Of a stretch of DNA of 64,000 nucleotides, positions 14,668 through 45,938 are shown piece by piece (position 1 is the first letter of the stretch; every line of letters begins with the position of its first letter). The notes beneath the pieces are model-generated. The model was not told where the DNA came from. It made no database searches and was given only the letters and a program-made list of their open reading frames with translations. A program made the translations under genes and the position numbers. The DNA comes from Vermamoeba vermiformis (Eukaryota), in the NCBI GenBank assembly GCA_045837725.1, contig JBEWZL010000011.1:372001-436000 (forward strand), given 5' to 3'.

Positions 14668-15024
14668 ATACCTTTTTGCCTCTTTACGTCTGACTACTTC
14701 TACCTTCCTTTACCGGTCTTTATGCGTCTCCAATCTGTCAAAGTAATTTTTTGTGACGAGAAATCTTTCGGCGTTTTTTCTCGGTTCGCTAAAGTAAAAA
14801 TTGGCACTGCCGTCGTTTATTCACCTCTGAAACCAACAACGTGACAACATGAACCTTATTTAATTAATTATTATTAATATCTGTGCATCACTCGCATTTA
14901 CACCTGACAAGGCATAATAACGTAAGTAAATTTTTTAAAATTAATTAATTAATTTATTCTGCTCGTTTTCGAATATTCTACTGTCTTTGGCTCAGTAAAT
15001 AATAATAATTTTTATTTCAAGACA

Positions 15025-15678: not shown

Positions 15679-15822
15679 TTGATAATTTCAAATTGTAAAT
15701 AAACTTCATCGCTTCTAGTTGAACTTTATCAAACGATCGGATCCTATGGTAAAGCGGCGCAACGTCAATTAAGAGCTAAGTATATTTATGAGTCCAATAG
15801 TAAATGCAACTATATTAAGAGC

Positions 15823-16994: not shown

Positions 16995-17682
16995 GTTTTA
17001 AGATTTGTGGCGCAGTGCTTATCAATAAACAAATAAAATCAAGAATAAAATCTGTTTTTGTGCTTGCCAAACTCTTCGCAGGAACTTTCTTTATGCACCT
17101 TGTCAGTCCACAAAAGCACTTTTGCGTATTAATTTTACGACCCTTATGCAAGACGAACTACGATTCAAAATATCTCGCCACTAGCCATTAATGTCAAGAT
17201 TATCGGTCTTTCCTCCGAAAATTATGATAATCTTATTATTATTATAATGTAATTATGGTATATATTTATGTAATAAAAAATTATTGCACCCATCAGTAAA
17301 GCGAGGTAGAACCGGAAGATCCAGCACCGAGTTTTCTTTGGCGCCAAGTATGATCACCATCAGCTAAGACGAAGGCTGGATTGACAATATACGTATGCTT
17401 GTGAAGCAAACATGTTCATACGGGATGCCCTTACAGAAGTCTATTCCAATTCAACTGCATCCGGATGATTTAAACCACAGCTTATGGCTTGCTTCGCTCA
17501 AATACTTGAAGCTATTAAAACGACGTACTGCTTAAGAAGCACCGCTTTATGACACATTTGTTACTTCTGGCTTCAGATCGACTGCTGGCCACCGAAATTT
17601 CAAATACACGTCACTTCTGGTCTATTCTATTGCCTTAAATAATCGCGATTTGTTTCTACTACTGCTAATTTGAACATAAACG

Positions 17683-20600
17683 ATGGCACAACAAGGGTTT
17701 ATCGACATTAAGACTGGACAGTTATGTCCTTTAGTTTCTCTTCAAATCCGATCCGCCTTCATCGATCGTTTTGGTAATATTCTTGATAATATACAGCTGT
17801 ATAAATAACTTAGTAATTTTTTTTCCTTAGGTTCTATTGAGGTTGTCCAAGAATACGAAAACACAGGCAAAAATCCGATAGAAGCAGTATTCACGTTTCC
17901 AAAAGACGATCAAGCAGCAGTAACAGGATTCAAAGTGAAAATAAATGACAAAACGCTGATTGGTCAAATTGAAGCCAGCGATGAAGCACAAGAGAAATAC
18001 AGGTGATGCAATTGCTGAAGGCAAAGGTGCATATTTGCTCTCTCAAAAGCGATCAGATATCGTAACTCTTTATATTGGTAAGTTTTATCGTGGTAAATTA
18101 CGCAAATCTTGTCATCTTTTGGATGCTGTGCTACATCTGGTCCCGAAAATATTTTCTAAATCTTACACCAACTTTAAAACAAATTAACGTAGCTTAAATT
18201 GGGTATAACAATTTATTCATGATTTTTCTCCACATTTATTCGTCTCATCTAACAAAAATCGGATTCGGATCTGACTTAACTTTTATTTAGGCAGCCTTTT
18301 ACCGCAACAAAAGGTTCAAGTCGAAATAACCTGCGTTACAGAAGCTCAATGGGAAGGCAAAGCACTTAGAATAACATTCCCAACGACCATTGCACCCCGT
18401 TACACGCCTCAACAATTTCAACAAGACGAAGATCACCAGATCAACCCCGTTTATCATTCAAATGATAACCAATTGCCATATGACTTCATATTCGAATCTT
18501 CAGTGCAATTAACGCATGATACAATTTCATCATTTGAATCTCCTACGCATAAATTTTCGGAGATCGACATCTCAGCGGATCGAACCAAAGTCAGCGCGAA
18601 AGTGCAGGCAAAGAAAGGAGATATCATAGCTGATAGAGATATCGTTCTTATAGTTCATGCCGATAAGAGATCGTTGCAAAAAATGCCGATTATGATTAAC
18701 GAAGTAGATGCAGCCGGACACCACGCACTTTATCTCTCGTTCATTCCAAAAATAATTTGTAACAAAATTTCGAAGAAAAAAATGCACGAAATTATATTTG
18801 TTATCGACAGGTAAGAAATTCAACGGTAATTTTAATTTCAAAAATTTTAGATCCAAATTTAAATTTTAATAGGAGCGGAAGTATGGACGGTCAGCAAATG
18901 AATTGTGCGAAAGAAGCTTTGCAACTATTTCTTCGTTCATTGCCCGCGTGTTTCTTCGACATTGTCAGCTTTGGATCGAACTTTCAACAAATGTTCGGAT
19001 CTCCTGCGCAATATTCTAACGAGTCTTTGGCGCAAGCTACTGAACAAGTGAAGAAATTTCAAGCTGATTTGGGTATGCTACAAAATTTGAATTTTAAATA
19101 TAATTTACTAAACGTGAGAATAAGGTGGTACGGAGCTTTTGCGGCCTTTAAGCCAGATCTACCAACAATCACCAAAAGGTGGCAAAAGAATCATATTCGT
19201 ATTAACAGGTACGACATATTAAATCACTCATATTAGTATTAAATTAATTCTTTTCTTTAGATGGTCAGATCTCGAACACGCGTCAAGTGGTGGATCTCGT
19301 CAAAAAGAATTCGGCCACAACTTCAGTATTCACGCTGGGAATAGGCGATTCTGTTAGTAGAGACCTAGTTAATGGCATGGCTCAGGCTGGCAATGGATAC
19401 GCTGAATATGCAACGGGCAACGAGCGACTTCAACCTAAGATCATTCGACAGGTAAAATGTCATTTTATGACACTTTGACACTTTGACACGTGTCAAGTTG
19501 AAGTTTCTTAGGTCACGTTTTACAACCTTAGTACTACATTTAAATCGATGATAGATTATTTTGAATGCTAGAAATGACTAACCTATGAAATGACAGTTGA
19601 GGCGTGCCCTTGAAAACTTCTCCGTTGAGATTGATTGGCATTCACGAACGGTAGAACAATTCCCAGAACATATTTCTCCGATCTCTGACGAAGATCCGTT
19701 GCACGTGATGGCATTTGTTGACGACTCGTACCTTCGAAGGTAAAATTTAATCCCTTCTAAATGAGTTCCAGGTATTAATTCTTTTTTATTCTTAAAGCAA
19801 CAAGAAGATTATGATTAAAATCAGTTGCGATGATAATAATGAATATTCGATCCCGTTTGATCTAGCTCAAATGAAGACAGTCCGCGGCAACAGAATTCAC
19901 CAATTATTTGCTAAGAAAAAGGCTGATACAATGAGTTCCGATGCAACCAACAATAAGAATCAAATTCGCAATCTGCAAATATTGTGCAAAAAATACACCG
20001 TGCTGTCAAACGTCACAAGTTTCGTACTAGTCGAACAACGAAAAATTGCTACAACGACCACGCCAGAGCTCGTAAATATTCCGCTTGCCAGACCTAAGCC
20101 TGCGCCGTTGACAGCTCAAACAATAGTGACCAATGGCACCGTGTCACTTGGCGGAAAATTCTCAATGAATTACAAAGCGACAATTGGCGCAGATTTTGCT
20201 ACGTGCAGAATAGTATTGGCTGATAGAGAAGTGAGGGTGCAACTATGGGATCCATGTAAGTATCATTCGTTCATGAACCAAATTTTCACTGAACTGACTT
20301 CGAAATTTTTTCACAGCCGGATCTGAACGATTTGGTGGACCGTCGAGAATATTTTATAGTGGTACATCTGCAGCTGTTATTATGTACGATGTGCATTCTC
20401 GACCTTCATTTGACAACGTGAAAGATTGGATTGACAAATTGACCGTGCAAGCTGGATCCGACATTCCGATGGTTTTAGCGGGCAATAAGATTGATAAAGA
20501 TGGTCAAAAAGTTTCAACGGGAGAAGGCCAAAAATTAGCAGATTCATTGGGCATTGCTTTCTTCGAAATTTCCGTGAAAGATACCACGAACATGGGTGAC

Positions 20601-21335
20601 TTGGTGAAACTGCTCTTCGCTACTATGATATTGAACGACCCTAATAATACTGTGCTTAAAGGTAGGCCGACACCTATAATAATAGTTAATAGATCTAAAG
20701 GGGTTTTAGTTATTATTCTCGGAGATTCAGCCGTCGGAAAAACCAGTTTCAACACGAGACTTGCCGGATCCACCATCAACTTGAGCGACATCGACACGCG
20801 AAACTTAATAGGCTCTCAAAGTACTACTCAAGATACTCAAGCCCAGGATAATAATGGCTCGTTACTTGGAAAAGTATGGCAAGGCTTCAAAAGCGTGGTT
20901 GGTTATTTCAGCGGATCCAGATCTACAAATGACGCGTCAATTGCGACTACGAATACGAATAATACAAGCAATAATACAAACACCGTGCTTGTGCAAAAGC
21001 CACAAAAAGTCATGGTGCAGTTGCCGCCCAAGCAAAAAAAAGTCGATTTGAATGCTATTATTTTGGCGCAAAACGCTGAAGGCGCTTGGAACATCAACGC
21101 AGCCGAATCAGTTCAGCTTTTTGGATCGGATCTGACAACTCAAGCACCGCAAGGAGTCAAACAAGATATTTGGACGACGATAGTTTGCATCGCTTATTTG
21201 ACGGTCAAATGTAGCCAGCACAAGTCAGAATGGGAATTGATCGTTCAGAAGGCTGAAAATTGGTTGAAAACTGTTGGTGCAAACAAATCTGAATGGAATC
21301 AACGTGCAAGACAGTTGATACAACAAACTGTTTGA
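17683..21335 (+). CDS. VIT + vWA protein with circularly permuted Rab-like GTPase, paralog 2; apparent +1 frameshift near 18002
   Basis: Same architecture as 10949-14498: ATIGADF, WDPS/GSE, NKID, EISVK, LK/VIILGDSAVGKT. AAATACAGGTGA versus paralog AAATACAGTGA puts TGA in frame (real lesion or sequencing indel). Confidence 0.85.
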
Positions 21336-21421
21336 AAGTAAACGTGCAGTACGTTGATTTTCCCAAATAAGGCAATTTTATCGACCACTTCGCCACGTGA
21401 CATTTTTCTCGGTCGTTGATC

Positions 21422-21504
21422 GCATCGGTGCCCGAGTTGGTCTAAGGGGTTGGATTAAGGCTCCAATATCTTCGGATGCAAGGGTTCGAATCCCTTCCGA
21501 TGCA
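21422..21504 (+). tRNA. tRNA-Leu (anticodon AAG), identical to 14585-14667
   Basis: Identical cloverleaf sequence followed by TTTTT. Confidence 0.95.
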
Positions 21505-22002
21505 ATACCTTTTTGCGTACTAGATCGAAGGTACGTGGCCTATTAATGTTACGTAAATCCAGCGAATCAAACCAAGAAAACTGATTTTAAAATATTACTC
21601 ATGCATAAAATAATATTTAATATTTCTTGTTGGTTGAAGCAAAACGCGATAGAAAAACGTTAGCCTTAGTTTTTTTTTAAAATTGCTGCAAAATTATTGG
21701 CTGCCTATTTTTAAAATGGACCAATGAGATTTTACCGGCCCTATATAGATATGCCCCTAGCGACCGCTAAAAGATTCAATAACTGATACTAAGCCGAGTT
21801 CAACGAGTTTGAGACGTCGATCGATTCCCTTACTCCCTTTCCATTTTTGGAGTGAACCCTGTTACTCTATTGGTCCGCATTATTTTAAGAGCGGCCAATT
21901 ATATCATTAGGCACCTCCCGATTGGCCAAGAAAAAAATCGATTTAACCTTAAAACGTTTTTGGATCTTGTTCATTGATAAGCACTGAAGACAATCTTAAA
22001 AC

Positions 22003-23193
22003 ATGAGATCGCTCATTGTTATCGCAGCTATTCTCTGCGTCGTTGGCACCGTCTTCTGCCAAACCCCGCCAAAGCTTCCTCAACAGTTCTACACCAACTT
22101 CACGCGTAAGTTTAAAAATATACTAATAAAATTGTTAAAATTAATAATAGAGAAATTATCTGTCGCAGGTTATCCTTAATTATGCGTCCGCAATAATTTG
22201 CGTTGCTTAACGATCGGAGAGGATTAAGATCGAGAGTATTAATTTTAATGAATTTTGTGCCAGTTCGTTTTCCTAGCTATTCTTCACCGACTGATTCTCC
22301 CGTCTATATCGCGGGATTCTTTGCTTTGGATTATGTTAACGGTGGCGCTTTCTTGGACGTCGGTGGCGAGGATTGTAAGTGCGGATCTGATGCGGATCGC
22401 GCTGCAGACTAACGCTCTCGCCTATTTAGATATTCCTTTGTCTTTCCACACCAATCTCGTTGCTTCTCCTGATGCCAGCCAAGGCACCACCACTGGTACG
22501 AGCCATAATTTAACTTACGAAACTTAATTAATCCTTTTCGTTTCAAAGGTTACATGTACGAAGGTCCTTTGTGCTGGAATTTTGGTAAGTCATATAAAAC
22601 CATATTGTACGATCGTTTGTGATTAATTGAAATTCTGCCAATGTTAGTAATTTTGCGATTAATGAACTAATGCGAACACGTACCTTTTAGGCTCTGTCCC
22701 TGTCTCCATCTCGAGTTTCTTCCCCTTTGAATTGCCTTCCAATGCTTCATTCGTCGGCAACAAGGTCGTCGGGGGTCAGCCTTGCAGTGGCTGGGAATTG
22801 GAAGGTAAGAAAATGACGCGGATCTGCCCGTGTGACACGAGTTTTGAAATCGTCAAAAAAAAGCATCCAATCATCTTATTAATTCTTGTAAAAGCTGCTG
22901 CTATCTTCGGCTACGTTACTCCCATCACCGTTTGGATCTCTACTAAGACCTCTAATATTGTCCAAATTGACGTTGAGGGTATCGATTACGTGGGCGAACT
23001 CCAAATCAATTTCTCCAACACCGTTTCTGGTCCCTTCTCTCCTTCCATCTACGTAAGATAATATTCTCCTACATTTTTATATTGAAGTACTAACGCTGCT
23101 GTTATTTAGGCTCCTCCCAACAAGGTGAATCCACAGTTGACCTGCACCAACGCTTTTGTCAGCGACTTTTTGTCTCTTCTGTTGCGCAGATAA
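22003..23193 (+). CDS. Secreted ependymin-related protein, copy B
   Basis: Paralog of copy A with the same exon structure: MRSLIVIAAILCVVGTVFC...PCSGWE...CTNAFVSDFLSLLLRR*. Confidence 0.6.
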
Positions 23194-23309
23194 GCTCTTA
23201 AAATAGTTACGTGTACAATTAGACCATAAATATACTGAGGCTAACTCTTGATTTCGTGGCGGTAACGTTTGACGCCCGATACGCTATATTTTTTGACGTG
23301 ATTTACTTT

Positions 23310-23451: not shown

Positions 23452-23774
23452 TTGATTCGATCTCCTTTTAAAATTAATGCGAAGGAGATTCAAGAGATGA
23501 AAGTGTATCTTGCGTTAATTGCGTTGATGACAGAATATGAAGGGAGCACAATTTGAAAGACCAGCAGGGGATCGGTACAATATAATTTATAGTCTTGGCT
23601 CCTTTTCAATTGTATTCCATAACAATTTTTCTATTAATTTTTTAGAAGGACTTCGCATAAAGGGCGTTAATTAATACGAAGGAAAGTTCCTGAGAAGAGT
23701 ATGGCTACAACCACAAAAATCTGATTTTATTCTGATTTTATTGTTTATTAATACGCTGAACCACAAGCTTAAAC

Positions 23775-24939
23775 ATGAGATCGATTATCGTTATCGCTGC
23801 TATTCTCTGCGTCGTTGGCACTGCCCTCTGCCAAACCCCGCCAACGCTTCCTCAACAGTTCTACACCAACTACACGCGTAAGCTAAGCAATAATAATCAT
23901 AACAAATTGTGTTCAATATGGCCACGCGCAATACGCTTTCTAAACAATGAGACATTGTTTCCAGATCGAGTATTAATTTTTACGAATTTTGTACCAGTTG
24001 TTTTGCCTAGCTACGTTTCACCGACTACTGCTCCCGTCTATATCTCGGGCTTCTTTGCTTTGGATTACATCAACGCTGGCTCTTTCTTAGAAGTTGGTGG
24101 TGAAGAGTGTAAGTTGCAGAATCTGATCTAAATCTGATCGAGCTGCCGACTAACGTTCTCGCCATTTTAGATATTCCGTTGTCGTTCCACACTACTTTCG
24201 TTGCTTCTCCGGATGCTAGCCAAGGCACCATCACTGGTACGAACCTAACCTAACTAATGAAACTTTAATTAATCCTTACTGGTTTCAAGGTTACATGTAC
24301 GAAGGTCCTTTGTGCTGGAACTGGGGTAGGTTATATTAAACCATCGTATACGATTAATTTGTGATACATTGGAAATTACGGCGAACCAGCCCAATGCCAT
24401 TAATTTAGCGGTTTTTGCGGTTCATGAACTAATGCGAACACGTACCTTTTAGGCTCTGTTCCTGCCTCCCTTTTGACATTTTTCCCCTTCCAATTGCCTG
24501 TTAATTCTTCATTCGTCGGCAGCAAGGTCGTCGCAGGTCAACCTTGCACTGGATGGGCGTTCGAAGGTAAGAAAGTGACGCAGATCTGACAGTCCGACGC
24601 GAATGTTGAAATGTAGAAAAGCCCTAATAATTCTTGTAAATAGCTGCTGTCTTCGGATACACTGCCCCTGTCACCATTTGGGTCTCTACTAAGACCACTA
24701 ATATCGTCCAAATTGACGTCAAGGCTGTTGAATACTTGGGAGAACTCCAACTCAACTTCTTCAACACCGTTTCTGGTCCCTTCTCTCCTTCCATCTACGT
24801 AAGATAATAATCGCCTACATTTTTATATCGAAATACTAACGTTACTGTTGTTAAGGCTCCTCCCAACAAGGTGAATCCACAGTTGACCTGCACCACCAAC
24901 TTCTTCGGCGGCTTTTTGTCCCTTCTTTTGCGCAAATAA
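23775..24939 (+). CDS. Secreted ependymin-related protein, copy C
   Basis: Paralog of copies A and B with the same introns; ends CTTNFFGGFLSLLLRK*. Confidence 0.6.
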
Positions 24940-25135
24940 GCTCTGAATATAGTTGCAATTACTGGTAGACTCATAAATATACTTAGCTCTTAATTCGACG
25001 TTTTACTGGTTAACTAGATCCGATCGTTACGACTTGAAACATCGCTAAATGTTCGCTAAATAATAATATCTACATTATTTCATATATAATTGCTCTCGGC
25101 ATATTATTTAGTATTATTACAATTATAAGTTTGCG

Positions 25136-27442: not shown

Positions 27443-28133
27443 GACGATCGAGATGTCCTTTCGTCAACCTAGATCTTCTGTTAGAAATTCGTTGTAGTAG
27501 TCTCCTGATGCAGACTAATAATAAATAGTTGTTCTATCCTGCAATTCTATTATTTGTGCCAGCCGCAGTGAATTTGATAATTTCAATTGACTTTTCATTC
27601 GCAATTGTTGCAGCGTACAAAAGTAAATACGAACTATTTGCATTTTGTATCACGATTACCAGTTAACAATGCAAAATATGCACACTTGCTCAGGACTTGT
27701 CCACCATCAAGAAAAGTGACGGATTCACGCGGAACGTTTCCATCTTACAGCTTCCTTCAAACACTTCAAAAAAATATTTGTCAGTAAGTAAAATATAAGT
27801 ATGCAAGCGTGCAGTATTATTGGGAAAATAACGTGTTGCTGAACAAATCCAGTTGGAAAAAAATTAACTTAAATTTAATTGGTTGTGTATCATCTCATTA
27901 CTTACCGCATAATATTTTAAAGCCACCAATACGCTATATTTAATAGTATGCAATTTAGTTTTAGTTTTAATTGTTAGTTTTAACGATTTTGTTGTGCCCG
28001 GTCAACTCACCCCTTTTTAAACGGTCTTTAGACCTTTAAACAAGCAATTAAGGTGCATTATAATCGTGCAATTTATGCTGTGTTGTTGAGCGTTCAGCAT
28101 TGTTTTCATTTTAAATTAATGTTTTGTTATCAG

Positions 28134-29584
28134 ATGAAGAGAACACGCGAAGAGAACGACAATGAAGAGCAACCACAAACTAAAAAAGCGAAAATAGATT
28201 GTAATTATAATATTGATGGAGAAGATGATGGTCGTGGTGTGTTTGATATCTCAGAATTAGTGGAACATATCGTCAAACATTTGATCTGTTCTCCCAAAAC
28301 AATTCGCAATTTGTTGATCACGTGCAAAAGGTAATCGATAATATTTGAAACAATATTATACGAATTAATTCAATTATTAAAAAAATTGACATTAGTTTGT
28401 GACAGATTCGTTTTTGACTCAAAAAAAAAACTGACCGTTTATCGCAGAATCCGTCGCATTGTCCTCAAACCATATCTATGGCAACAATTAGGCTTTAATA
28501 TGCTGCATATTAACCCGTCTGACCAAACGATGGACCCAAAGATCTTCAACCATTTTCTTGTGAGCTTGGAGATCGCTAGAATCAACAGAAAAACGTTCGA
28601 AATGCAACAAAGAATTAACAAATTGACGAAACATAACGAGACAACGTTGCCTACCGAGTACAAGCTGTAAGTCCAATGTATTTCAGTTTTTTTTCTCCGT
28701 TAGTACTAACGGTTATCAGATCACTAACTACGTCCCCAAACAAAGAATATGCATCGCGTATATTCAGCGAAGATTTTGTCACCAACAGACGATTAACTCG
28801 CGAAGCCCTGGACGCGTTAATTACGCTCAAAAGTTTGTTGCATTTTTCCAGCGATGTCTTATCAATATACGATATCGTTAGATTCATTGAGTTATCCAAA
28901 GACGAGTGCCAACGATTACGTACGTAATAATAATGCCCAAAATTCTAGGAATTTTTTCCGATCCACCGTGCATTTTTTATTTCTTATTTAATAATATCCT
29001 TATATTATCGCTAATATTTACTTATTAGAGGGAAGTAAGATATTAGCAGCTAAATCCATCGAGCCAAGTGCACTAGACATCGCATTCGAATATTTTCGGC
29101 CAGTACGTCGTTTTATTTGTCCTATAAATGCGGAATACTTGTAAGAATAGAATTCTCTCTATAAGATTGAAATCGAGGTTTTAACTTTCATATGAATTAG
29201 AGAAGATACACATAGCGAAGACGAAGAATTTGAATTGTTCTTCGGGGCGGCTACACTCGGAGACGAATTTAACTACGATTTTTCAGTATTAAAAATATTC
29301 ATTGATGGCAGCAGATCTATTCTGGTAATTAAATATGAAAACGAATGCATCACCTGTTCCATGGCGATAGTTGTAAGTAGTCGGAATTTGAATTCAAATT
29401 TAATAATGCTTATTTGTTCTTAAATTAGCACAACATTGAAAGCAATCTTATTGAGGATTGCGGTGATATAAATCAGTTGAAAGAAAAATATCCGAATTTG
29501 AGAAAACATCAACATTTTCGTGGCTCTTGGGATCCGACTCCAACTATCCATTTCTGTAACATTCCGTTTCTACAATTGCAATAA
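28134..29584 (+). CDS. F-box-like protein with N-terminal basic NLS-like motif, multi-exon
   Basis: MKRTREEND...PQTKKAK, then VFDISELVEHIVKHL..PKTIRNLLITCKR/..LWQQL. Last exon ends FCNIPFLQLQ*. Confidence 0.6.
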
Positions 29585-29871: not shown

Positions 29872-31331
29872 TTATTGATAAAATCGAACATTACAAGTAA
29901 TTTTTAGTCCACTGCCGTTGAACCAGCGAAGACCAAAGTCAATGTCGTGTAAGTAGTACCGAAAACTATGCTGCAGATCCAAAGGAAGTGCCACTATTTG
30001 AAGCAAATTATCCAAATCGCTATAATTGGCTTCGGAATATTCTCCATGCTCCTCTATTAAATTCTCGGCGCTATTAAACTGAACGAAAATAATTAATCGT
30101 CGATCACCATAAATTTTTCCGTGATTACCTTAATATAATACGAGCAACTCTCGCCTAAATCAATATCCTGCATAAATATAAACACTACTGATCGATTTTC
30201 ATCAAGGAATGTCTTGAACACTTTGATTTCGACTGAATCATCTTGTGCATGTAGTAACTTGAAGAATTTAGGGAAGCTATTTATAAATTAAGCTTTAATA
30301 GATTAGGATGAATTATGACCGTACGGTTTATCCCATCCGTTTTGCCCATTGCTGAATCCGGATCTGTTTTTTGGATAGTATACCAGCGCAATTGGTAGAA
30401 AATTCGAGCGAGCCCTGAGTACGTGCGATCCCTCTATAATATTATTAACATTAAATTTAAGTTAATGAATTTAAAGAGCGGATCTTTACGTCGATAAAAC
30501 GTTTACCTAACCGAGTCAGTTCATCTCGTGATACCTCCATAAACATAATAATATCATCAATTGATAGGAGGTTCATTGAACTCGCCAACTGATATTTGAA
30601 GGTCAACAAAATTTCAACAGCTTCTTTGGTAAGTCGTCTGTTCGTTACAAAGTCTTCGCTCGGAATGGTAAAAGGCGACCATATATGCGATGTTTTGCGC
30701 TTAAATCGTTCTATAATACTATTATAGTAGCATCGTTAGTTCGGGGTATCGTTCTGGAATCAAAGAAGATCTGATGGGTTGCACTTACGGCGAATATTCA
30801 ACAGGGGTCAGATTTTCGGACTCAACTGACAGTACATTCATTATTTGCTGCATGTTAAGTAATTTTCGCTTCATTTTGACAATTTGTAAGCTCGAGAGAA
30901 AATGCGAAAATATGTTCGGGGCAACTGTTGGGCTAGAAGCATCGATGTGAAGCGCATTAAAGCCTAATTTTTGCCATAATGATGCATTTAAAATATATTG
31001 ACGAGTCCTGAAAGAAAATATGTTAATGTTACCAAAAAAATGTGACATCCAAAACAAATCTGTCAAAACGAAAGAAGTGCCAAAAATAAAATTGAATTAA
31101 TTCGTATAATATTGTTTCAAATATTATCGATTACCTTTTGCAGGTGATCAACAAGTTGCGAATTGTTTTTGGAGAACCAAGCAAATATTTGACGATATTT
31201 TCCACTAATTCTGAGATATCAAACACACCATGACCATCATCTTCTCCATCAATATTATAATTACAATCTATTTTCGCTTTTTTAGTTTGTGGTTGCTCTT
31301 CATTGTCGTTCTCTTCGCGTGTTCTCTTCAT
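29872..31331 (-). CDS. F-box-like protein, convergent paralog of 28134-29584
   Basis: Near-identical first coding exon; homologous later exons (LWQKLGFNALHID; SEDFVTNRRLTKEA); ends ITCNVRFYQ*. Confidence 0.6.
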
Positions 31332-31779
31332 CTGAGCACAAAACATTTTAAAATGAAAACAATGCTGAACTCTCAACAACACAACATAAATTGCACGATT
31401 GTAATTGCAGTATTTGATGCTAAATTAACTCAAAGGCTGAACAGAAAGCAGATCTAGTAAAATTTTCATTTGACTTTGATTTTACCGCCCTCAGCACGTG
31501 TACCTCGCAGTTAATAGTGAGTATTTTTAGATAACTTCAACAGTATAATATGGTTGCAACCATTACGCATGTATTCATTGCTATCTTTATTAAATTAAAA
31601 AAATTCAATAGCAAATCAGATTTGACTCGCTATCAGTTTCTTTTCCTTTAAATGCTGCTGGATAATTAACAATATAGAAAGCATTTTTTTAAAAAATAAT
31701 CCAGTGCTAAATCCGTTTTTTTTGAACGCGATCAGATGCTGCTCGGAGCTCCACAAATTAGATATGACCTGGTCTGTAC

Positions 31780-32700
31780 TAGCACAACGAGCAAGTCACA
31801 AGTAACAAGCTCGTGCAAGCGCACGACAAGATCGTTTCAGCCACCAAACAAACGATACGTAAAAAACAAAAAGATCAGCAGCGCTTTTCGTTGGTCCCAA
31901 CTCCGTAATTTCAATTCATTGATGCCTTGTTTGGACGAATATCAAAAGTGTAAGTAAGTTAAGGTATTATCATCCACGACACGACCTAACGTACAATTAC
32001 TATTTTAAGGCTATTTCATGAAATGAAACTACTTTCAGACCGAATCTTCGTGCTCAATCTCCGTTAATTATGGCTCGTTTTTGAAAGTATATTCTCGGAG
32101 TTATAACCGCTCCCAAGCTACTTCGGTAAGACCATCCACAATAACGCATGTTTTATTGCCATTTTAAGGCGATTTCAATTTCGATTGGGACACGTGTCAA
32201 TTTCCCAACAGATTTTTTGACTTCGCTCAAATCTCCGCTCGAACATCAATTTCAAAGCTTTACTGACGATGCTATTTTAGGACAATACGTACTGCGGAGA
32301 TGAAGAAGAGCATTGATCAACGGATAACTGCGCTGTTTGTGCGATTGTGTCGGAGAATCAATCACCGAGACAATGATCAAGCTCCGCTGAAACAACGCGA
32401 GTCAATATAAACGCCAGTCATTCATGAACGAGTTCCGTTGGCCAGCAGTATCTTGTCGCGCGATGATGAATTTGACCATTTATGGTAAGTGGTCTCGTTC
32501 GCATAAATAAGTTCTCATTTCGATTCATTTTGATTTGTGATCACTTTGAGATGACTCTCGACACACTTTCTAGGGGGCTCTCAAGCGCGTTGTTTCAAAT
32601 TGATGTTTGATCGATCGCGCTGGCTCCGTTATTACGTCCCTAGAGAGTGTCTCCGGAGTCATTTCGAAGTCGTTACAACTGCACTAGGCATAATAATTTA
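31780..32700 (+). repeat. Dispersed spliced non-coding module, copy A
   Basis: High identity to 39060-39960(-), 43215-43830(-), 44999-45255(-) and 56606-57152(+). GT-AG introns conserved; indels between copies are not multiples of three. Confidence 0.85.
32535..32678 (+). ncRNA. Candidate intronic pre-miRNA-like hairpin, copy A
   Basis: Stem of about 42 bp (TTGTGATCACTTTGAGATGACTCTCGACACACTTTCTAGGGG pairing with TCCCTAGAGAGTGTCTCCGGAGTCATTTCGAAGTCGTTACAA) inside an intron starting GTAAGT at 32485. Confidence 0.6.
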
Positions 32701-35319: not shown

Positions 35320-36946
35320 CTACTGTAGCATGACGTCAAAGGGTTGGATGCATTGATAGAGTTGACCCAAAATGCATAGGTTGGTTAATACCTTAGAACT
35401 CAATGTGCAATAGTTGCAAGAAGCGCTGTCGCACGAGTAATTGTACACCGTGTCTGCGTCGCACTTTTGAGATGAAAAGTTGCTGTTGCAGTACTTAGAC
35501 TTCTTGTAGATCGAATACTGGGGACTAAAATGCATATTAGATACTCGGATAAGATATAATTTACATCGGGCAATTAAATTGACCTAAAGAAATAATTAAG
35601 AAGTAAATCCGGATTCAGATCCCGGACTTTTCAGCGCAAAATTATAGGAACTGTTACATTAACGTACGTTTTGCAATCGTATTCGTTGTAATGAATTTGT
35701 TCGATCCAAGTTTCTCCATTAGGCAAGTTTAGATTCTCGTCGCACGTAGTCATAACAAACGAGCCTCCAGTCCAAGATCCGATTGTTTGGCAGCCAGGTG
35801 TGCAAGAAGTTGTATAATTCACAGTAGCCATGTAGACCGAGGACGAGGAGCATTTGGTGCCTGAACCAAAGTACTGAACGGTCACGTGGCGGTTAGATCC
35901 GGATTGAGGAGCTCTAACAGGAACAGCCACAGGAGATGCAATATTAGGGCAGTAAATGGTGCCGTTGAAGTAGGTAACAGGAGGCATACCAGGTTCTCCA
36001 CCAGACAAGCTTGTCCATTCGACCTTCGTCGGATCGGCAGCTAAAAAAAACAAAATTAGCGACAAATAATTGCAACCAAACGGATTTAAATACATGATGT
36101 ACTGCACGTTAAAGTAATAACCGATTGTCTGGGACCTGGTGGATTGCACGAGCCACAGACGTCTCCACCCGAGTACGTGATCTGAACACCTGAGCCTCCG
36201 TCTGCAGAAAAAATTGGTTACAAACAAATTATATCAAATTTCATAAATCATTGCAGGTAAGAGCAAATTTACACGCCTTCTACTGCCGGCGAATTGAAAA
36301 AGAAGTGTTTGCACGTGTTCGTGCCAACAATTTTGGAAATTTCTACGGCGAGCGCCAAAAAATTGGGAATCGATAGTCGACGAGGTCTTAAAGGGCTAAA
36401 GTACTACGATATATATTGCTATATTACTTAATCCGACTACTGAGATCTGCGCATATTGACCCAAGCACTTCGCATTTGAACCCCAAGTTTGGCAAACGCC
36501 TACGATCGAATTATAGTTAGTTATAACTATAGTCATTGATGAATTAGTTATTAAGGTGTTAATTTATAATGCGTAGCTATAGTATAAGTAACTCTCTTAT
36601 TACCTGAACTATAAGGGGAAGCGCAGGAACCGGCACATCCGGTTGGAAGTGGACTGCAGACGCTAATATTGTAGACATATTGTTGACCGTTTTGATTGGC
36701 ATAGTAGTATTGTACCCTTAATGATAGTGGTTGGATCGTTCTTGGTGTTTAGATCCGGCGAAACGATCGAAACGCCTTAACTTTTTCAATTTAGTTAACG
36801 TGAACTTACTTTGATGCAATTGCCGACAAATCATATTGGGTACCATCAGGAGCGTACGCCATGGGACAAGTATTTTTTTGGCAGATCGCGAGTTGGATCA
36901 GGAAACCAGCCAAAACAGCGACCGATATAAAGCGTAATTGAACCAT
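35320..36946 (-). CDS. Secreted protein: signal peptide, MRH (mannose-6-phosphate receptor homology) domain, Cys-rich C-terminal module
   Basis: MVQLRFISVAVLAGFLIQLAIC; APDGTQYDLS; YVYNISVC; GVCQ; KCLG; GVQITYSGGDVC; RQSVITLTC; then HVTVQYFGSGTKC...CTPGC... and a Cys-rich last exon. Confidence 0.75.
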
Positions 36947-39059
36947 GATGTCAAAGATAATATAAATTATGCTACGCTACGTTCAAATGTTGAAACGAGA
37001 AACAACAAAAGATGTCTTAATTTTTTTGTAGCAGCGGCACGTGATTCCGAATCTATTCTGCATTTTCGTTTTTTTAAGGATTGACGAACGTACCAAGCCA
37101 ATCTGTTTATTACTGATGAATGATACATCGGACGATGGAGAATGAGTTAGTAAAACCGTTTATTGTCTCGTTCGACGGAGACAGATCTTTTTGTTGTAGC
37201 TGAATCGATGCGCTTATTTAATCCTCAAATTAACTCGTGTTAAATAACACAGCAAATAGAGGAAGTTTCTATGTACTTGTTCATAATGTCGGAAATCTCT
37301 CCTGGTCGGTCTCTGCAGATCGAGTTGCTAACGTTTCGAAGCGTGTCAATTTAGTGTTTTTACGACGCAGATTTGCAAATACGAGTTTATCTAATTCTAA
37401 GATACAATACAATAAAAATTTACGAATATACAAGCTCTTTCTGGCGCTCGGCGGCTTTAATTTCTTTGATGCCGATCAGCAAGCTCTTTCTTCACCTCTG
37501 CTCGAGTTTTTGTTCGCAGACAAGGCAAATTTGCAATACAATACAAATATACAAAATAATTGAGGTAAGACTTAGCTCACCACCGGTGTTTGGGTATTTT
37601 ATTATACGCTTCGATCGCTTGCTTTATCTCAGCAAGCTCTTACGGCGCTCAGCTCGATCTTTAGCCATTGCCGTTAATTTCTTCGACGATCGTTTTTAAG
37701 TAGTACGATCGGCTTATTTCCTTAATAAAACCGTGGTCAGTAGAGAATTTTAGCGCAGCAGATTTTAGACTTACTTAAGTCTCTCGCTGAGGTTCTTGCT
37801 TAATACAGAGAGTAGGTTGATTCAAAAGCGGCGTTTAAGTTGAAGATCTTGGAAGACCGTTTGTTTTCGGTCTTCGTTATTTTAACCGACGGTTGTTCTT
37901 TGAGCAGGTCAGCGTGGTCTCGTGGAATACTAAAAAAGGAAAGGCATGGTCAGTGTTGCTCGATAAACTAACTAGTTACGAAAGAAAATTATAGAGCTGT
38001 CTGCGAAGATAATATTTTGCGCTGAACGAACAAAAAAGCAATAAATAACGCTTACTCGAAAACTTTCCACAAGCTCCAGTGGACCAGTCCGTCAAAATGA
38101 GCCCGCCAGCGAGCCCGGGAATCTGCGAGCGTAGTAGCACTTCTTGTTGTTGTTGTTTTGTTGCTGTTGCCGATCCATGGACAAGGATGAGGCCTGCTGT
38201 CTTCCATAGCGTTGATCTTAAGGCTCTTGGGAGGTTCGGCCTAAAAAAACGACTTTGTCAGTGGAGGCTTGGTAAACTAACTATCAAAATTTTGAGCCCG
38301 CGCGCGAACAAAAAATTGTTTGTAGTTACATAAATAAGAATTGCAAAGCACATCAATAACGCTTACACGAATCGTTCCCATAGTTTGGCGTTGGCAAACC
38401 AGCAAATTGAGCCCGCCAGCGAGCCACGCGAACAGTTGGGCCAATTCTCCAGCTGAAAGTAATTTGTCAGAGAGTTTTGGACATAATAACTTCAAGCTTA
38501 CCTCGTCAGTCGGAACTACTTCTTGTTATTCTTTGCCATTCATCGGAGTTGTTGAGGATGGGTTTCTCATCGCTCGAGGAATTATCGGCTGAGGCTCTCT
38601 TATCATCGCGCACAACTGGATCTTCAGTGCGCCAATTGCTCTGCTCCTCGACGCTGGCTCTCTAGGACGATTTCATTAGTTATTCGTTCATGAACGAAAA
38701 AAAACATTGGATCGGACTTACAAATTTCTGGCAGCTGACATTAATTTGTTGTGTTGTCAAGTATTTTACGTGCTTCGACCTAATAATATCAAAATTAGCC
38801 GGATATCAAGAAAATTAAATCGCTAAGATTTCGTTAACTTACCAGAATCAGATCCGCCGAACAATTCAGGCAGTAGCAGGCATGTTTCTACGAAATCGAA
38901 TGTTATTAGGTTCGATATCAACAGCAACTAACAGCTTATACGTACTAGATCCAGTTCGTTATGAAGACTAACAATTTTTCCATATTCTGTTGCATTCTGG
39001 ACAGATCTAAACCAAGACATTGAAATGAGAAATAACCAAACGTAAATGCCGTGTAATGT

Positions 39060-39960
39060 TGGTAAGTAGTTGTAACGACTTCGAAATGACTCCGGAGACA
39101 CTCTCTAGGGACGTAATAACAGAGCCAGCACGATCGATCAAACATCAATTTGAAACAACGCGCTTGAGAGCCCCCTAGAAAGTGTGTCGAGAGTCATCTC
39201 AAAGTGATCACAAATCAAAATCAATCGAAATGAGCACTTATTTATGCTGCGAACGAGTCCACTTACCATAAATGGTCAAATTCAACATCGCGCGACGAGA
39301 TTTTGCTGGCCACGGAACTCCTTCATGAATGAAAAGTTGATTTACGCATGAACCAATTCACTGCGGAGTTGAAGATCGTGGTCTAGCTGAAGATCTGGGA
39401 GCCAACGATGAAAACTGCGTTGTCTTCCGTTAATCGATTCAAATATTATTCTCGCAAGTACGAATTGTCCTAAGATAGAATCGGTTAAAATCTTTCAGAT
39501 TGGCGGAGATTTGAGCGAAGTCAAAAAAATCTGTTGGGAAATTGACACGTGTCCCAAAGCGAAATTGAAATCGCCTTAAAATGGCAATAAAACATGCGTT
39601 ATTGTGGATAATCTTACCGAAGTAGCTTGGGAGCGGTTATAACTCCGAGAATATCTTGAAGAAACGAGCCATAATTAACGGAGATTGAGCACGAAGATTC
39701 GGTCTTAAAGTAGTTTTCACGAAACGGCCTTAAAATAGTAATTGTACGTTAGGTCGTGTCGTGGATAATAATACCTTAACTTACTTACACTTTTGATATT
39801 CTGCCAAACAAGGCATCAATGACTTGAAATTACGGAGTTGCGACCAACGAAAAGCGCTGCTGATCTTTTGTTTTTACGTTCGCTTGTTTGATGGCTGAAG
39901 CGAGCTTGTCGTGCGCTTGAGCGAGCTTGTGACTTGTTCGTTGTGCTAGGACAGACTAGG
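39060..39960 (-). repeat. Dispersed spliced non-coding module, copy B
   Basis: Reverse-complement match to 31780-32700. Confidence 0.85.
39070..39213 (-). ncRNA. Candidate intronic pre-miRNA-like hairpin, copy B
   Basis: Arms identical to copy A; two substitutions, both in the apical region. Confidence 0.6.
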
Positions 39961-40657
39961 TCAAGAAATGCGCGCTTAGAAGAATACTAGTCCTGCCAAA
40001 TCCGCAGTTTTTCTAGAAAGATTTTTTTTAAGGATTAGTAATCAATTTGCTTCATATATTTTAATAATCAAATCAAAGTATTCCCATTGTTATTGAACGA
40101 GCAGAGTTAGATCGAACTTCCGTAATAAATTAAATATTAAAATCCTTTCAAATCGATATTACCACGTATGATATAATATATATTATATGTATTATGTATT
40201 ACATGTATTATAAATTAATCACTAATTAAATGAGCGCTGTCGACAGCGTTCGACTTACAAAATCTCAATCCAATGCTAGATCATCGCACATGTGCGTTTT
40301 AAATTGACTAGTCCTTTTTTCAACGCCAATTTACCTTGGACTTGAAGTGAGACATTTGTGTTTACGGCGATAACATCTTTAAATGATAATCGGTGGTCTG
40401 AAAAAGGGCGATCAGTCGCTCTCCCAAACATACATAAGCATTTTGACTGAACCAATTAACGTCATTGATATTTTGATATTAAAGCGGTCTGGCTTCGCTC
40501 GCGATCAGTTTTAAAATAGTAAAACAAATTCCCGATTCCGCTCCGCTCGACCAGGATCGCTTTTGGTCCGAAAGTGCTTTTCACTTCGACGAATGCACTC
40601 AACGCAATAATACCTTCAAAATTAATTATACGCATTAGTTTATACTGCAAGGCTTTC

Positions 40658-42350
40658 ATGTCAACAAAGGATGGGGTAAAAAATTTTGATCAGATTATCG
40701 TTCACGAGCATTGTTTTGCAACTAATTAATTAAATCACCTAAAAATATGATTAACATCATCAGATATTAATAAATTTTTAGGCGCAAATTGTAGCTGATG
40801 GGAAGGAGCTCAAAGTTGAAGAGCTGTACAAATCCAAGTTGCACTTTGCCGAGTGGAGAAAATGGACACTTGCATTGGCAAATGAAAAAGGGCATATGTT
40901 ATCGATAGAAAAGGCATTATACATATTAGAGACGTATCCTAACTCTGCAACGGCGATCCGTTTTTATGGTGATTTTAATTGGCAGTTGCATCCAACGCAG
41001 CTCAAAAGACTCAAAAAAATAATAATTAATTCGAAGAAAATTGAAAAAGTGTGGTTTGATGCGCCAATAACAGCGATGCAGACGGTTCGCAAAGCACTCG
41101 AGAAAAACACCAGCGTAACAACTCTTAGTTTCTCATTCACGTTTCCGACAATAGAGCCGTTAAACTTCACTAAAGAAATTACGAAAATGATTAAAAATAA
41201 TCCGAGAATCAAACGGATCACAGCAGCGTACGAGCAAAAGTCAGAAAAATTCTTGACCACAATAATGGCAGCAGCGAGCTGTAATCCATCTATAGATTCA
41301 TTTGGCATTTCTGAGAAGACTAGTCTATTTGAAGGCATTTATTTAGGAAATAGATTGGATCTGATCCGAGATTCGTTGGCGAAAAATCCGAATATTACCG
41401 AATTCATTCTTGGAAAGTGCTATGTATTTGAAGAGACATTACTTGGAGAAATTACGGATATTATTAAGCAAAACAAGCTCAAAATATTTGGTTTTAATGG
41501 CACGCTTCGAACACATTATCCAAACGTTGTGGATCTGACCAAGTTTATTTCAACGATTCGACTATCGTCATTAACAACTCTGAACCTAGTATGTGATCAT
41601 TTCCAAGCTGATTTTATTGCAGATATCATTTCTATTCCTAATATCAAGACTTTATCGATGAACATGGTTGGAGAAGCGAATCTAGTCGCAAAAGCATTAG
41701 CGAAAAATACAACGTTAGAAACGCTTAATTTGGCATGTAAAGACGTCCATTGGGTAGACCGCGAATCTAATCGCGAATTTTTTGGAGCTTGGAACCAACA
41801 TCCGACGTTAAAGTCGTTTTCTCTTACAAGAACGATTTTGGATGTGGATCTTGAAACAATTTCAAATTTGCTCGGTGGAAAGCATTCATTAACTAGTTTA
41901 GATTTACCACAATTAGAAATAGGATCCCATTTCGAAAAACGAAAGCATGCTGCGCTTATCTGCGAGAAACTACGATCGAACCAAAAAATCAAAAAACTTC
42001 GGATCTCCCTGGAAGGCGACAAAAAACATCAAAATGCATTATTTCAAGTCGTATCACAACATAGCTCATTGACTTCATTCGATATTGGGTTTAGCAAAGA
42101 TTTATTAAGAAAAACAGTTATCGATCTAGATTCGAAAAACTTATTCCGACTACCAAACAATGAAATCGGTGACATTTTGGCATTATTGGTAAGAAATAGA
42201 GAATACAGAATGAATATTATACTCGCTATCAAAATTATTCAAAAATCATTTTGGACCTCGTTGCCAGCGGAACTGTGGGTTAAAATAATTGATTATTTGA
42301 CGTACGGACTCTCAATCGATTATCCGAAGCTATTAAATATCGAGAAATAA
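40658..42350 (+). CDS. RNI-like leucine-rich-repeat protein with C-terminal F-box-like motif
   Basis: Exon 1 MSTKDG, intron 40676-40781, then one long exon with ALEKNTSVTTLSF, ALAKNTTLETLNL and HSSLTSFDI repeats; ends FWTSLPAELWVKIIDYL. Confidence 0.8.
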
Positions 42351-43214
42351 GTCATATGTAAAGCAGTTACGTTCGTACTCTTGACGATCCGAATAGTACA
42401 AAATTTTTATTATATCAGTAGCAGACAAATAAAAAGTGTATTTGGTATTCAGTTAGTTCAAAGTACTAAATAACTCAAGGCAGAAATACGTGAATTTATC
42501 ACTGGTGCGTTGCAGATAGTACGGCCGCAGGTGTTGCGATTGGCTCTTCAAAGAGAATTAGTTCGTGATTAACTTGCTTTTTAATAATATTGTTAAAAAT
42601 ATTGAGATTGCTTACTCGTCTGTCTTGATTGTGAGAGATCGAAGCCTGGAGCTCGTCCATTAACCCGCTGGCGCAAAGGGTTCGGCGATATTGGCGTAAA
42701 GAAGTTGAGTTCCGAGTAGAAGTCGCTGAAAAAGTCAATAAAAATTATCTCGATCAAAAACGATTCAAAGGATTATCTTACATTTTAGCGCTGCCATAAA
42801 ACCGAGAATGGATCTCGGCACGAAAGTTCGCAATGGCTTACAACGCACGTGACTACCAATATGGCACTGCATTTCGTATTAACATTCGTAGTATGGCAAT
42901 AGTGGAGGCTAAAATATTAAACGACTGTTAATTGATGAACGAACGCTTTCTTTAGCTAAAGACTGACCGTATTAAATTCTTTTTTGTTTCGATTTTGTCG
43001 CTATTATTGTTCATTTTGTTCCATTTGAAATGCAAGCAGATAAAAGAAGCAAAGGTTGAATTACATCCTATCAAAATAATTACCTTAAATAGATCGCGCA
43101 CGAGTAGGATCTATTAAATATAACTATATTTTAAACTTAACGTACCTGAGAATGTTTCTATTGGAGGTTGTAAAAGAAGTTTGCTGTAATGAATCGCGAC
43201 ACGAGCTGTGGTCG

Positions 43215-43830
43215 CAGTTGTAACGACTTCGAAATGACTCCGGAGACACTCTCTAGGGACGTAATAACAGAGCCAGCACGATCGATCAAAACATCAATTT
43301 GAACAACGCGCTTGAGAGCCCCCTAGAAAGTGTGTCGAGAGTCATCTCAAAGTGATCACAAATCAAAATCAATCGAAATGAGCACTTATTTATGCGAACG
43401 AGATCACTTACCATAAATGGGAAAATTCATCATCGCGCGACAAGATCCTGCTGGCCACGGAACTCGTTCATGAATGACTGGCTTGTAAATTGACTCGCGT
43501 AGTTTCGGCGGAGCTTGATTATTGTCTCGGTGATTGATTCTCCGACACAATCGCACAAACAGCGCAGTTATCCGTTGATCAATGCGCTTCGTAATCTCCG
43601 CAGTACGTAATGCCTTAAAATAGAATCGGTTAAAATCTTTCAGATTTGGCGGAGATTTGAGCGAAGTCAAAGTTCACGAAAACACTCTTGGGAAATTGAC
43701 ACGTGTCCCAACCGAAATTGAAATTGAATCGCCTTAAATAGTAACAATGCGTTGTCGTGGATGATCTTACCTTGCGCATGCTTTTGATATTCTTCCAAAT
43801 AAGGCGTCAAAGACTTGAAATTAACCATCT
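43215..43830 (-). repeat. Dispersed spliced non-coding module, copy C
   Basis: Reverse-complement match to the copy A module. Confidence 0.85.
43218..43361 (-). ncRNA. Candidate intronic pre-miRNA-like hairpin, copy C
   Basis: Arms identical to copy A; differences confined to the apical region. Confidence 0.6.
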
Positions 43831-44309
43831 CGTTTTGTTGCCGAGCTTGTTTTACCTTATTGTCCTTTCAACTCGCGTTCAGTATCAATTACTCGACTTC
43901 ATATCTATGTAATATATGTCAGGTCTAATAGAAATATCAACTCGAGGTCAAATAGCAATATTAGGTCAGAGTTAGCGGATTTAGGTTTGATCAAATCCAA
44001 AATAATTGTTAAATAATTCAAAAAAATCCAACAAGTTCGGTTTGAATAATATACATTGCAATTCAAGCTAAATTATTGTACGCAGGTGCAATTAAAAATA
44101 TTTTTACTTGTTTACCTTGATCAACTTGCTCTCGAGCTCAAATCTGGTTTGAAGCCAGCGTAGTAATTGATTCGAGCTTAAAATGACCCCCGGTAAACTT
44201 GATTTTAATAAAATCATGCGGGCGTTTTATGGTCGCGCTTTCGTTTGGTTTGCAGATCAAGGGAACAGCTTGTTTGAAGTTATCGACTACTTAATTATTT
44301 ACGAATTGG

Positions 44310-44929
44310 ATGAATACCACTGAATTATTTGAGCAACTTAAACCCAACCCGCAATTCCAAACGCTGGATGAACGTCTGGCCGAGATGGAGCTTATAATTA
44401 CTGTTATAGATGCGCTGCAGATTAAATTGAAGCAAGCGAGGTCGGAATATGAACAGCTCGTTAAAAATCAAGAAAATGTGTGCGCGGAGCCGAATTTAAC
44501 AACGGATCAACAAAAAAATGAGATGCATCTAATCGTTAAGAAGGCTAGAAAAGAAGTGAGACTTCTCAGATTAAAAATTGTGCTTCTACAAAGAATGGTA
44601 TGAATAACAATGATTATATCATTTAGATTAATAACTTCAAGTTTCGGATTCAATTTTTTTTCTCAATAATGGATGCGAGGACTAATGCATTCAACTAGTA
44701 TATAGAATTATTACCAGAAGATATGAAACGAATTAAGAAAAAGCTCGTAAGGTTACAAAACATCGCGGGGTTGACGTGGGAAGTTACGCTGCATTTGCCG
44801 AAGAAAAAACACCAAATCATCGCGCTGTTTTGGAAGCATCGTGAACTGGTTAATGAAGCATCAAATAACTCAATTACGCTCAATTGTCAAAAAAAATACC
44901 TTGATTTGTATCGACGTTGTCCGGATTAA
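44310..44929 (+). CDS. Hypothetical two-exon coiled-coil protein (about 170 aa)
   Basis: ORFs 44310-44597 and 44699-44929 join in frame across a phase-0 GT-AG intron; heptad-like LAEMEL..IDALQIKLKQA. Confidence 0.55.
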
Positions 44930-44998
44930 ATAGCTAATTACGCTTACATCAAATATTTTCGTAAGTGGATAGATCACGTGGGATAGTTCCGGAGCCAC

Positions 44999-45255
44999 TT
45001 CATGAATGCCTCGTGTACTTGCCTCGATACTGCATGTTGACTCGCGTCGTTCGGCGAGCATCGTCAATCACACAAACAGCGCAGTTATCCGTGGATCAAT
45101 GCTGAGCGAAGTCAAAAAAATCTTTTGGGAAATTGACACGTGTCCCAAGCGAGATTGAAATTGAATCGCCTTTATTGGCAATTATACTGCGTTGTCGTGG
45201 ATGGTCTTACCTTGCGCATATTTTTCCAAAATAAGGCGTCAATGACTTGAAATTT
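44999..45255 (-). repeat. Truncated copy D of the non-coding module (lacks the hairpin)
   Basis: Shares the TTGACACGTGTCCC intron segment and the CAAACAGCGCAGTTATCCG exon segment, with internal deletions. Upstream flank resembles 43830-44110. Confidence 0.75.
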
Positions 45256-45938
45256 GGTTGAACAAAGCGCTTTCTTGCCGATCTTGTTTGCGTGCTTTCA
45301 ATTCGCGTTCAATGTTGTGATTAGAATCAAACGCTCGTGTCTGTATTGAGGCACCGGATTATATTAGAAATATCAAATCAGAATAAGTACCCCAATAAAT
45401 TTAATTCGTTTGATCAAATCCAAAAATTAAAAAACAATTCCAAAAAATCCAGCATTGCTTTAATTACGTGTAATATGAAGCTATAATGACGTTTATAACA
45501 TAAAGAGCGCAATTAAAAATGCTTTTACTTACCGATCTAGATTTCCATCGCATCTTCTTATTTGTTTCAACCAATTATTATAACGAGCCAAATTCAATCA
45601 CATTATAATGGATATTCTTTCTCTCATCTATTAGATCAGTTGGAAACTTAAGATGGAAGAGACGAGCAAATGCTTAGTATGCACGAGTTGACTGATAGCA
45701 ATAAATACTAGAGCTGTTTTATATTATGAGGGGCATTAATCAATATATAATGCTAATATTTGATAAACTCATCGCAGTCTGTGTTGTTTCAATCTTCACG
45801 CAAGATATTAAATTAAAATTCACGCACCAAAGACCACAAAAGATATCGCTGGTCCCTGGGTGATATTTATATTATTAGGCACATATATTTTGCTAAATTA
45901 TTGTAAACCCTTGCTTTTGAGCCCAAATCTAGTTTGTA

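Follow-up and report, generated by a model that had tools for sequence, protein, structure and literature searches.

The window analysed here is a 64-kb stretch of Vermamoeba vermiformis DNA (64,000 nt of contig JBEWZL010000011.1). A segmental duplication of ~6.8–6.9 kb (11086–14679 and 17820–21516), 83–94% identical between its copies, harbours a gene that has VIT/vWA-like and Rab-like GTPase parts, and each copy ends in a tRNA-Leu(AAG) of identical score (14585–14667 and 21422–21504). The best relative of the Rab-like ORF of the window was a JGI protein with 60% identity. An ABCC-transporter fragment of 164 aa was 95% identical to one JGI protein; among the 120 relatives listed for it, all 29 that carried an organism name were fungal (48–60% identity), and we take these names to belong to Ascomycota, Glomeromycota and chytrids. 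Coming from one fragment, this is weak evidence; it would point to a fungus or a neighbour of the fungi and lends no support to the amoebozoan framing of the earlier note. A segment of ~1.3 kb occurs in three copies, two in tandem and one inverted (15732–17092, 21967–23239 and 23679–25028; 78–82% identical), and its sequence reads as another local gene-family expansion. At 48967–50802 (+) there is an open frame of 612 codons with Ser/Pro/Asp-rich repeats (SWSPDGSSSPSYSPDSS...) and a Cys-containing terminal domain, which recurs in neighbouring ORFs (35634–36233 (−) and 54686–55819); Pfam gave no match. The stretch 35907–37046 is ~90% identical to 54686–55819 in inverted orientation. A further inverted pair, 28057–28375 and 31090–31405 (319 nt, 95% identity, ~2.7 kb apart), lies just upstream of the first of the repeat units described below.

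Four copies of a 144-nt hairpin, here called c1 to c4, are located at 32535–32678 (+), 39070–39213 (−), 43218–43361 (−) and 56988–57131 (+). An earlier note on this DNA had placed the hairpin at these four sites, and in each of them TTGTGATCAC was found to begin it, at 32535 (+), 39213 (−), 43361 (−) and 56988 (+), respectively. In c1, the 5' arm covers 32535–32575, the apical three-way part 32576–32637 and the 3' arm 32638–32678; the arms of c2, c3 and c4 are identical to those of c1, and c3 shows a shifted T in its apical part. A scan of the window with the 28-nt core of either arm, allowing up to 3 mismatches, found exactly four occurrences; the number expected from 100 shuffles was 0. The sequence runs ..TTTGAT before the first arm, which begins TTGTGATC..., and CTGC.. 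follows the GTTACAA that ends the second arm; these flanks show no direct repeat.

The predicted fold was far more stable than that of shuffled controls, a comparison that the earlier note had named as a check. The sense RNA of 166 nt reached −73.0 kcal/mol (z −7.44), with none of 200 shuffles equally stable, and the antisense strand of the same length reached −54.2 kcal/mol (z −4.59). In the 144-nt folds, the sense strand was the better one by 19–26 kcal/mol in all four copies: −71.6 against −52.6 kcal/mol in c1, −68.1 against −43.4 in c2, −68.0 against −42.5 in c3 and −69.7 against −47.2 in c4. The 41 positions of the lower stem comprise 32 Watson-Crick pairs, 6 G·U pairs, 3 C·C oppositions (1x1 mismatches) and no A·C. 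The next pair above them is a seventh G·U, and once it is included the composition agrees with the 7 G·U, 3 C·C and 0 A·C that had been counted by hand over ~42 bp. There are neither secondary stems nor large loops in the lower stem, and branching begins above it. Compared as DNA, the arms are complementary at 32 of 41 positions (78%) and share no exact 9-mer, which is why they were absent among the 15 pairs returned by the inverted-repeat finder; among the pairs that it did give, no comparable hairpin was present elsewhere in the 64 kb. In c1 and c4, the apical loop is 86% complementary over 21–22 nt to a site ~340 nt upstream in the same unit (32236–32256 and 32593–32613 in c1; 56687–56708 and 57045–57066 in c4), and this site is deleted in c2 and c3; the complementarity may reflect long-range pairing or chance.

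The hairpin forms the 3' end of a repeat unit of 540–900 nt, which is a recombinant mosaic. An nhmmer profile of the four units located them at 32143–32682 (+) for c1 (E 3e-191), 39066–39600 (−) for c2 (E 5e-186), 43214–43753 (−) for c3 (E 2e-184) and 56604–57135 (+) for c4 (E 5e-182), and homology between c1 and c2 extends back to 31765. In all four, the hairpin has the same place and orientation relative to the unit, and no fifth hairpin was found in the 64 kb at up to 3 mismatches. The profile also detected a fifth, partial unit at 44990–45193 (−), ~1.4 kb upstream of unit c3, which matches profile positions 2–89 and 161–289 only (E 4e-19 and 6e-7). It consists of block A, a segment of ~80 nt that includes TTGGGACACGTGTCAATTTCCCAA, and part of the variable segment, and it is devoid of block B and of the hairpin. 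Block B, the highly conserved portion of ~265 nt, lies at 32418–32682 (+) in c1, 39066–39332 (−) in c2, 43214–43477 (−) in c3 and 56869–57135 (+) in c4. It is composed of a ~67-nt 'exon end', the motif ATG/GTAAGT (32482–32490 in c1; the slash marks the candidate donor), a 50-nt linker with ATAAATAA, and the hairpin. The mean pairwise identity is 0.89–1.00 in block B and 0.62–0.73 directly upstream, and the conserved region starts ~115 nt upstream of the stem and ends right after it.

Pairwise blastn of the six copy pairs showed homology in sense orientation over 380–915 nt upstream of the hairpin, and in all six it ended 2–32 nt past the hairpin, in agreement with the earlier note, which had similarity ending soon after the stem. 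A faint remnant of ~70–90 nt past the stem is common to c1, c2 and c4. Since the homology is upstream only, these loci are not whole-gene paralogues with an intron in common. The identity pattern along the unit changes partner: c1 equals c2 at 87–100% over alignment columns 201–520 and c4 at 94–100% over columns 521–640, and in columns 641–800 c1 groups with c3 and c2 with c4, the two types being ~45–60% alike. Across the hairpin all four copies are 80–100% alike with identical arms, and further upstream in the unit the copy types differ by up to ~50%. The mosaic shows that the copies recombine or convert. The age of the unit family has sufficed for deep divergence, which blocks A and B resist.

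Both 41-nt arms were invariant among the four copies (0 of 82 columns), and 11 of the 62 columns of the apical part varied, which by our own count corresponds to five events, including three substitutions and the one-base T shift in c3. The claim that the arms are identical and that every difference is apical was therefore borne out. Of the 120 flanking columns that precede the hairpin, 17 varied (~14 events). Counted by events, the arms differed from the apical part (Fisher p 0.013) and from the upstream flank (Fisher p 0.001), and counted by columns, the apical part and the flank changed at a similar rate (p 0.52). Two apical pairs carried one-sided changes with the pairing kept: (i) one that is G-C in one copy and G·U in three, as had already been remarked, and (ii) one that is C-G in two copies and U·G in two. 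Among the 88 predicted pairs, not one showed a double-sided (compensatory) change between copies; covariation therefore gives no proof, nor could it be expected to with four young copies, and the structure rests on thermodynamics, on the asymmetry of the wobble pairs and on conservation in four recent copies.

In a DNA inverted repeat, a transition in one arm reads as G·U in one strand and as A·C in its complement, so that neutral decay predicts equal numbers of the two. The 6–7 G·U pairs against no A·C deviate from this expectation (one-sided p about 0.016–0.008). Mutation bias linked to transcription could push the same way, but its usual size is too small to give 7:0 alone. These findings point to selection on the structure of the sense-strand RNA and not to a decaying DNA palindrome. 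With arms that are invariant as against a variable loop and variable flanks, and with wobbles on one strand, they support the earlier proposal of a structured RNA family selected on the sense strand, and the 144-nt hairpin probably functions as an RNA element and may be the precursor of small RNAs. As the copies recombine, gene conversion may account for part of their identity.

Six contigs from run X1 (151–198 nt, 95–99% identity) cover genic and non-genic parts at a flat depth of 2–5, and we therefore take them as low-coverage DNA of a close relative and not as transcription. One of them, from this relative (~97.5% alike), spans 43148–43295 and contains 78 bases of the c3 hairpin at the orthologous site without substitution; as the overall divergence is just ~2.5%, this conservation of the 3' half is not significant. 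The contig has one extra C in a CCC run of the 3' half, which would add a G-C pair. In the X1 relative, 13 other letters replace 205 nt within unit c3 (43918–44124), and a 110-nt GT..AG segment, 46069–46178, is absent (46068–46179), which would be a difference in intron presence if X1 is DNA.

The earlier note had placed the hairpin in the same intron in all copies. This is borne out in part: a candidate donor, ATG/GTAAGT, precedes the hairpin in all four copies, 50 nt upstream in c1 and c3 and 53 nt upstream in c2 and c4. No homology was found between the downstream sequences (0 tblastx matches in six of six pairs, with 2.5 kb compared per copy). Intron-like segments are also present higher up in the unit, for example GTAAGT...CCTAAC...TTTTAAG in c1 and c2, which suggests a spliced, probably non-coding sense transcript. 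The open frames differ between the copies and are interrupted by 1-nt indels and stops. The ORF of 89 aa whose end coincides with the c3 donor had no relatives at E up to 0.1 among proteins of near length, and the 82-aa ORF through hairpin c2 had none among 1.84 billion representatives. A small ORF across the donor, MMNLTIYGKWSRSHK, was dropped because of a stop in c3 (TGG to TGA). A protein-coding exon and intron of a paralogous gene family was ruled out by the inconsistent frames, the missing downstream tblastx matches and the lack of protein relatives in these searches. The leader unit is small, duplicated and probably non-coding.

The possibility exists that the hairpin helps or regulates splicing, in that it would fold 144 nt of a long intron away and bring GTAAGT near the branch point and acceptor in the manner of a zipper stem. 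The donor motif 50–53 nt before the stem in all four copies is in line with this, as are YAG acceptor candidates 22–66 nt past it. The two introns observed in a transcript from this region (run X3, see below) are short, 56 and 59 nt, so that an intron of at least 220 nt, as would be required here, would be unusual. In the yeast zipper stems described in the extracts from PMC12350175, the 5' linker has a minimum of 10 nt and the total is 42–85 nt; the 50-nt linker exceeds this minimum, and in c4 a candidate branch point, TTAAC, ~30 nt past the stem would give a total of ~81 nt, within that range. Taken together, the candidates for branch point and acceptor give totals of ~70–120 nt. A small predicted stem (CCAUUUA / UAAGUGG with a 3-nt loop; 32476–32492 and its equivalents) also encloses the donor-like GTAAGT; it is kept in three of the four copies and has C·A at its base in c3. 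Like the yeast zipper stems, the hairpin would be a stem flanked by a donor, here a candidate 50 nt away, and by the likely branch point. In those extracts, however, zipper stems are short, from 6 bp upwards, and show 20–30% sequence conservation between Saccharomyces species, whereas the present stem greatly exceeds them in length and in sequence conservation, with 82 of 82 arm bases fixed, 41 bp and −70 kcal/mol. In addition, the candidate donor, branch point and acceptor are known from sequence alone, and the downstream sequences are unrelated among the copies, so that there is no common mRNA for such a stem to serve. We therefore regard a role in splicing as unlikely.

Another repeated intronic structure with which the hairpin may be compared is the introner-like element of fungi. 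The elements treated in PMC3609843 and the hairpin have in common that they are repeated, that they occupy an intron (here an intron candidate) longer than usual and that they have a very stable predicted structure; only four copies of the hairpin are present in the window, all in one context. An introner-like element was rejected because the similarity, instead of being limited to the intron, reaches 400–900 nt beyond the donor on its upstream side and breaks off within the intron candidate.

The hairpin could also be what is left of a MITE-like or foldback transposon, or of a DNA palindrome, that was present in the ancestral unit and has been kept alike by gene conversion without any RNA function. 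MITEs and foldback transposons can give rise to hairpin-RNA genes, and the two inverted 41-nt arms around a 62-nt core, 144 nt in all, have the size and layout of a MITE, so that a MITE is plausible as the origin of the hairpin. Recombination among the copies is evident, and the units cease to be homologous at the hairpin or just past it, as they would at the end of a mobile element or at a breakpoint induced by a palindrome. Conversion, however, would homogenise the loop as well as the arms, yet all five changes are in the loop (p 0.015), and the wobble asymmetry of 6–7 against 0 also speaks against a relic that has no function as RNA. Unlike a MITE, the hairpin shows wobbles on one strand, and its copies are not scattered over the window: the four share one context and one orientation, and a further copy was not found in the 64 kb at up to 3 mismatches. 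No target-site duplication was found at the inverted arms, with no direct repeat where they begin and end (..GATT and CTGC..). Transposase and reverse transcriptase were not found in the 50 ORFs of at least 75 aa that were scanned out of 68 overlapping 26–64 kb; Pfam gave nothing above the cut-off for these 50, and three weak matches (LRR, tetraspanin and Flp1-like). It is thus quite unlikely that the hairpin is such a relic. Two other element types were considered and dropped: a Helitron end, judged from the sequence (Helitron 3' hairpins are short and precede CTRR), and a solo LTR, as no TG..CA ends with target duplication were seen.

Transcript evidence was collected over 40500–46500. A 200-nt contig from run X3, 100% identical to the window over 42683–42997 (−), lacks 42726–42781 and 42909–42967, two introns with GT..AG ends, and its two joints together with its identity indicate that X3 contains RNA of this organism. 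This spliced transcript is on the strand of the hairpin and lies 220–680 nt downstream of c3. No contig crossed the c3 hairpin in X3, the single run that is clearly RNA. A second X3 contig, of 379 nt, shares exactly 30 nt with the window (43214 to 43185, −), the first of them 4 nt beyond the end of the c3 stem, and continues into sequence absent from the window. As an overlap of 30 nt equals the k-1 of the assembler, we read it as a branch of the assembly graph (another paralogue or variant) and not as a cleavage end; as its source, a further paralogue, structural variation and the end of an RNA are all conceivable. The raw RNA-seq runs X4 and X6, which carry the same species label, gave 0 reads on 40500–46500, including its 522-codon LRR ORF, and were uninformative.

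It is conceivable that the hairpin acts in cis as a double-stranded element of the leader, cleaved by an RNase III or bound by a dsRNA-binding protein, and sets the level of the transcript without functional small RNAs. The evidence from structure and conservation is the same as for a small-RNA precursor, the c3 hairpin is upstream of a spliced transcript on the same strand, and one leader cassette before unrelated sequence in four copies is what a shared regulatory module would look like. The contig that begins 4 nt past the stem base may be a mere graph branch, however, and the exact conservation of both arms exceeds what a purely structural site needs. We assign a cis-acting role of this kind a slim probability. 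It is very improbable that the hairpin makes up a small structured RNA in its own right, ~150 nt long, neither intronic nor diced and driven by a promoter in block B: the TATA-like ATAAATAA is kept in all four copies ~35 nt before the stem, conservation starts ~115 nt upstream and stops right after the stem, and the longest T run within the hairpin is four at most in c3 and three or fewer in c1, c2 and c4, but there is neither a conserved 3' signal nor a T-run past the stem, no Rfam family matched even at E up to 10, and the single RNA run has no contig over the hairpin.

The reading that we tentatively prefer, and hold to be a little short of an even chance, is that the hairpin is a substrate of a Dicer-type RNase III and the precursor of a lineage-specific miRNA-like or hairpin-siRNA family. 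In the proposed mechanism, the RNA hairpin would act within the sense transcript of the duplicated leader unit, as ~41 near-perfect base pairs capped by a variable three-way apical part. Transcription would then run through the hairpin, and its position would presumably be intronic. A Dicer-type RNase III would cut the long duplex into small RNAs of ~21–22 nt from both arms, purifying selection would fix both arms while the loop and flanks drift, and at least four paralogues with an identical duplex would feed one small-RNA family that may act on targets. Exact conservation confined to the arms, with a free loop, is the classical footprint of a small-RNA precursor.

Several properties of the hairpin agree with those of known small-RNA loci. 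According to the parts of PMC9757828 and PMC11014262 that deal with structural rules, the duplex of a hairpin small-RNA locus lacks secondary stems and large loops, as does the duplex here. Such a locus should not derive from another structured non-coding RNA, and the hairpin had no Rfam match at the gathering score or at E up to 10; a family of another class such as H/ACA, which the earlier note had raised, is therefore not indicated. C/D and H/ACA snoRNAs were rejected, since only C/D models matched, below threshold and at places that precede the hairpin (snoZ43 scored 19.4 bits, E 0.61, where the gathering score is 43), and the box-C-like GATGATGA reads GATGTTGA in c2. The geometry of the animal Microprocessor is not fitted by a ~41-bp stem with a branched top. 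When every 21-mer of the hairpin was scanned against the 64-kb window, no target-like site was found for either arm, and the nine matches with up to 4 mismatches were all from the apical part. Exact-pattern scans, which detect identical sequence only, gave 0 matches for the 5' arm and 0 for the 3' arm in metagenome contigs. The 5' arm had 0 matches in viral contigs as well, and its string was not found in full-text literature.

With the protist miRNA families covered by the extracts from PMC11014262, the hairpin has in common a long plant-like stem, arms that are the same across paralogues, a loop free to vary and perhaps a location in an intron. In that material, amoebozoan pre-miRNAs are mostly 75–125 nt long, and the present 144 nt with a branched top are at or above the usual size; asu-mir-1204 has eight paralogues; paralogous loci with the same duplex are documented in Amoebozoa; and in one amoebozoan species the miRNAs are mostly intronic. 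Protist miRNA loci are defined there by mapped 5p and 3p reads with precise ends, whereas the hairpin is known from its letters. The fungal milRNA loci in the extracts from PMC9757828 share with it the hairpin structure rules, the non-coding nature and the lack of homology to structural RNAs in Rfam, and fungal hairpin small-RNA loci wholly inside introns are described in them as very rare.

A more far-reaching version of the preferred reading is that block A, the variable segment and block B form a recombining or mobile 'leader cassette' placed before unrelated sequences, with a Dicer-substrate hairpin in the first intron or leader; we consider it improbable. Readings other than the small-RNA precursor and the four alternatives weighed above (splicing, transposon relic, cis-acting element and stand-alone RNA) jointly have little probability. 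The hairpin is a well-supported structured RNA of unproven function, with no sign of a new kind of system. Should it turn out to serve splicing or an RNase III, its length and its sequence constraint would be unusual among elements of that kind. If the leader cassette proved real, the expression of unrelated genes would be coupled to one intron-borne small RNA. If the arms do yield small RNAs, a clean multi-copy miRNA-like family would have been found from sequence alone in a poorly sampled eukaryote, and conservation confined to the arms, together with wobbles on one strand, would be usable as a sequence-only screen for such families.
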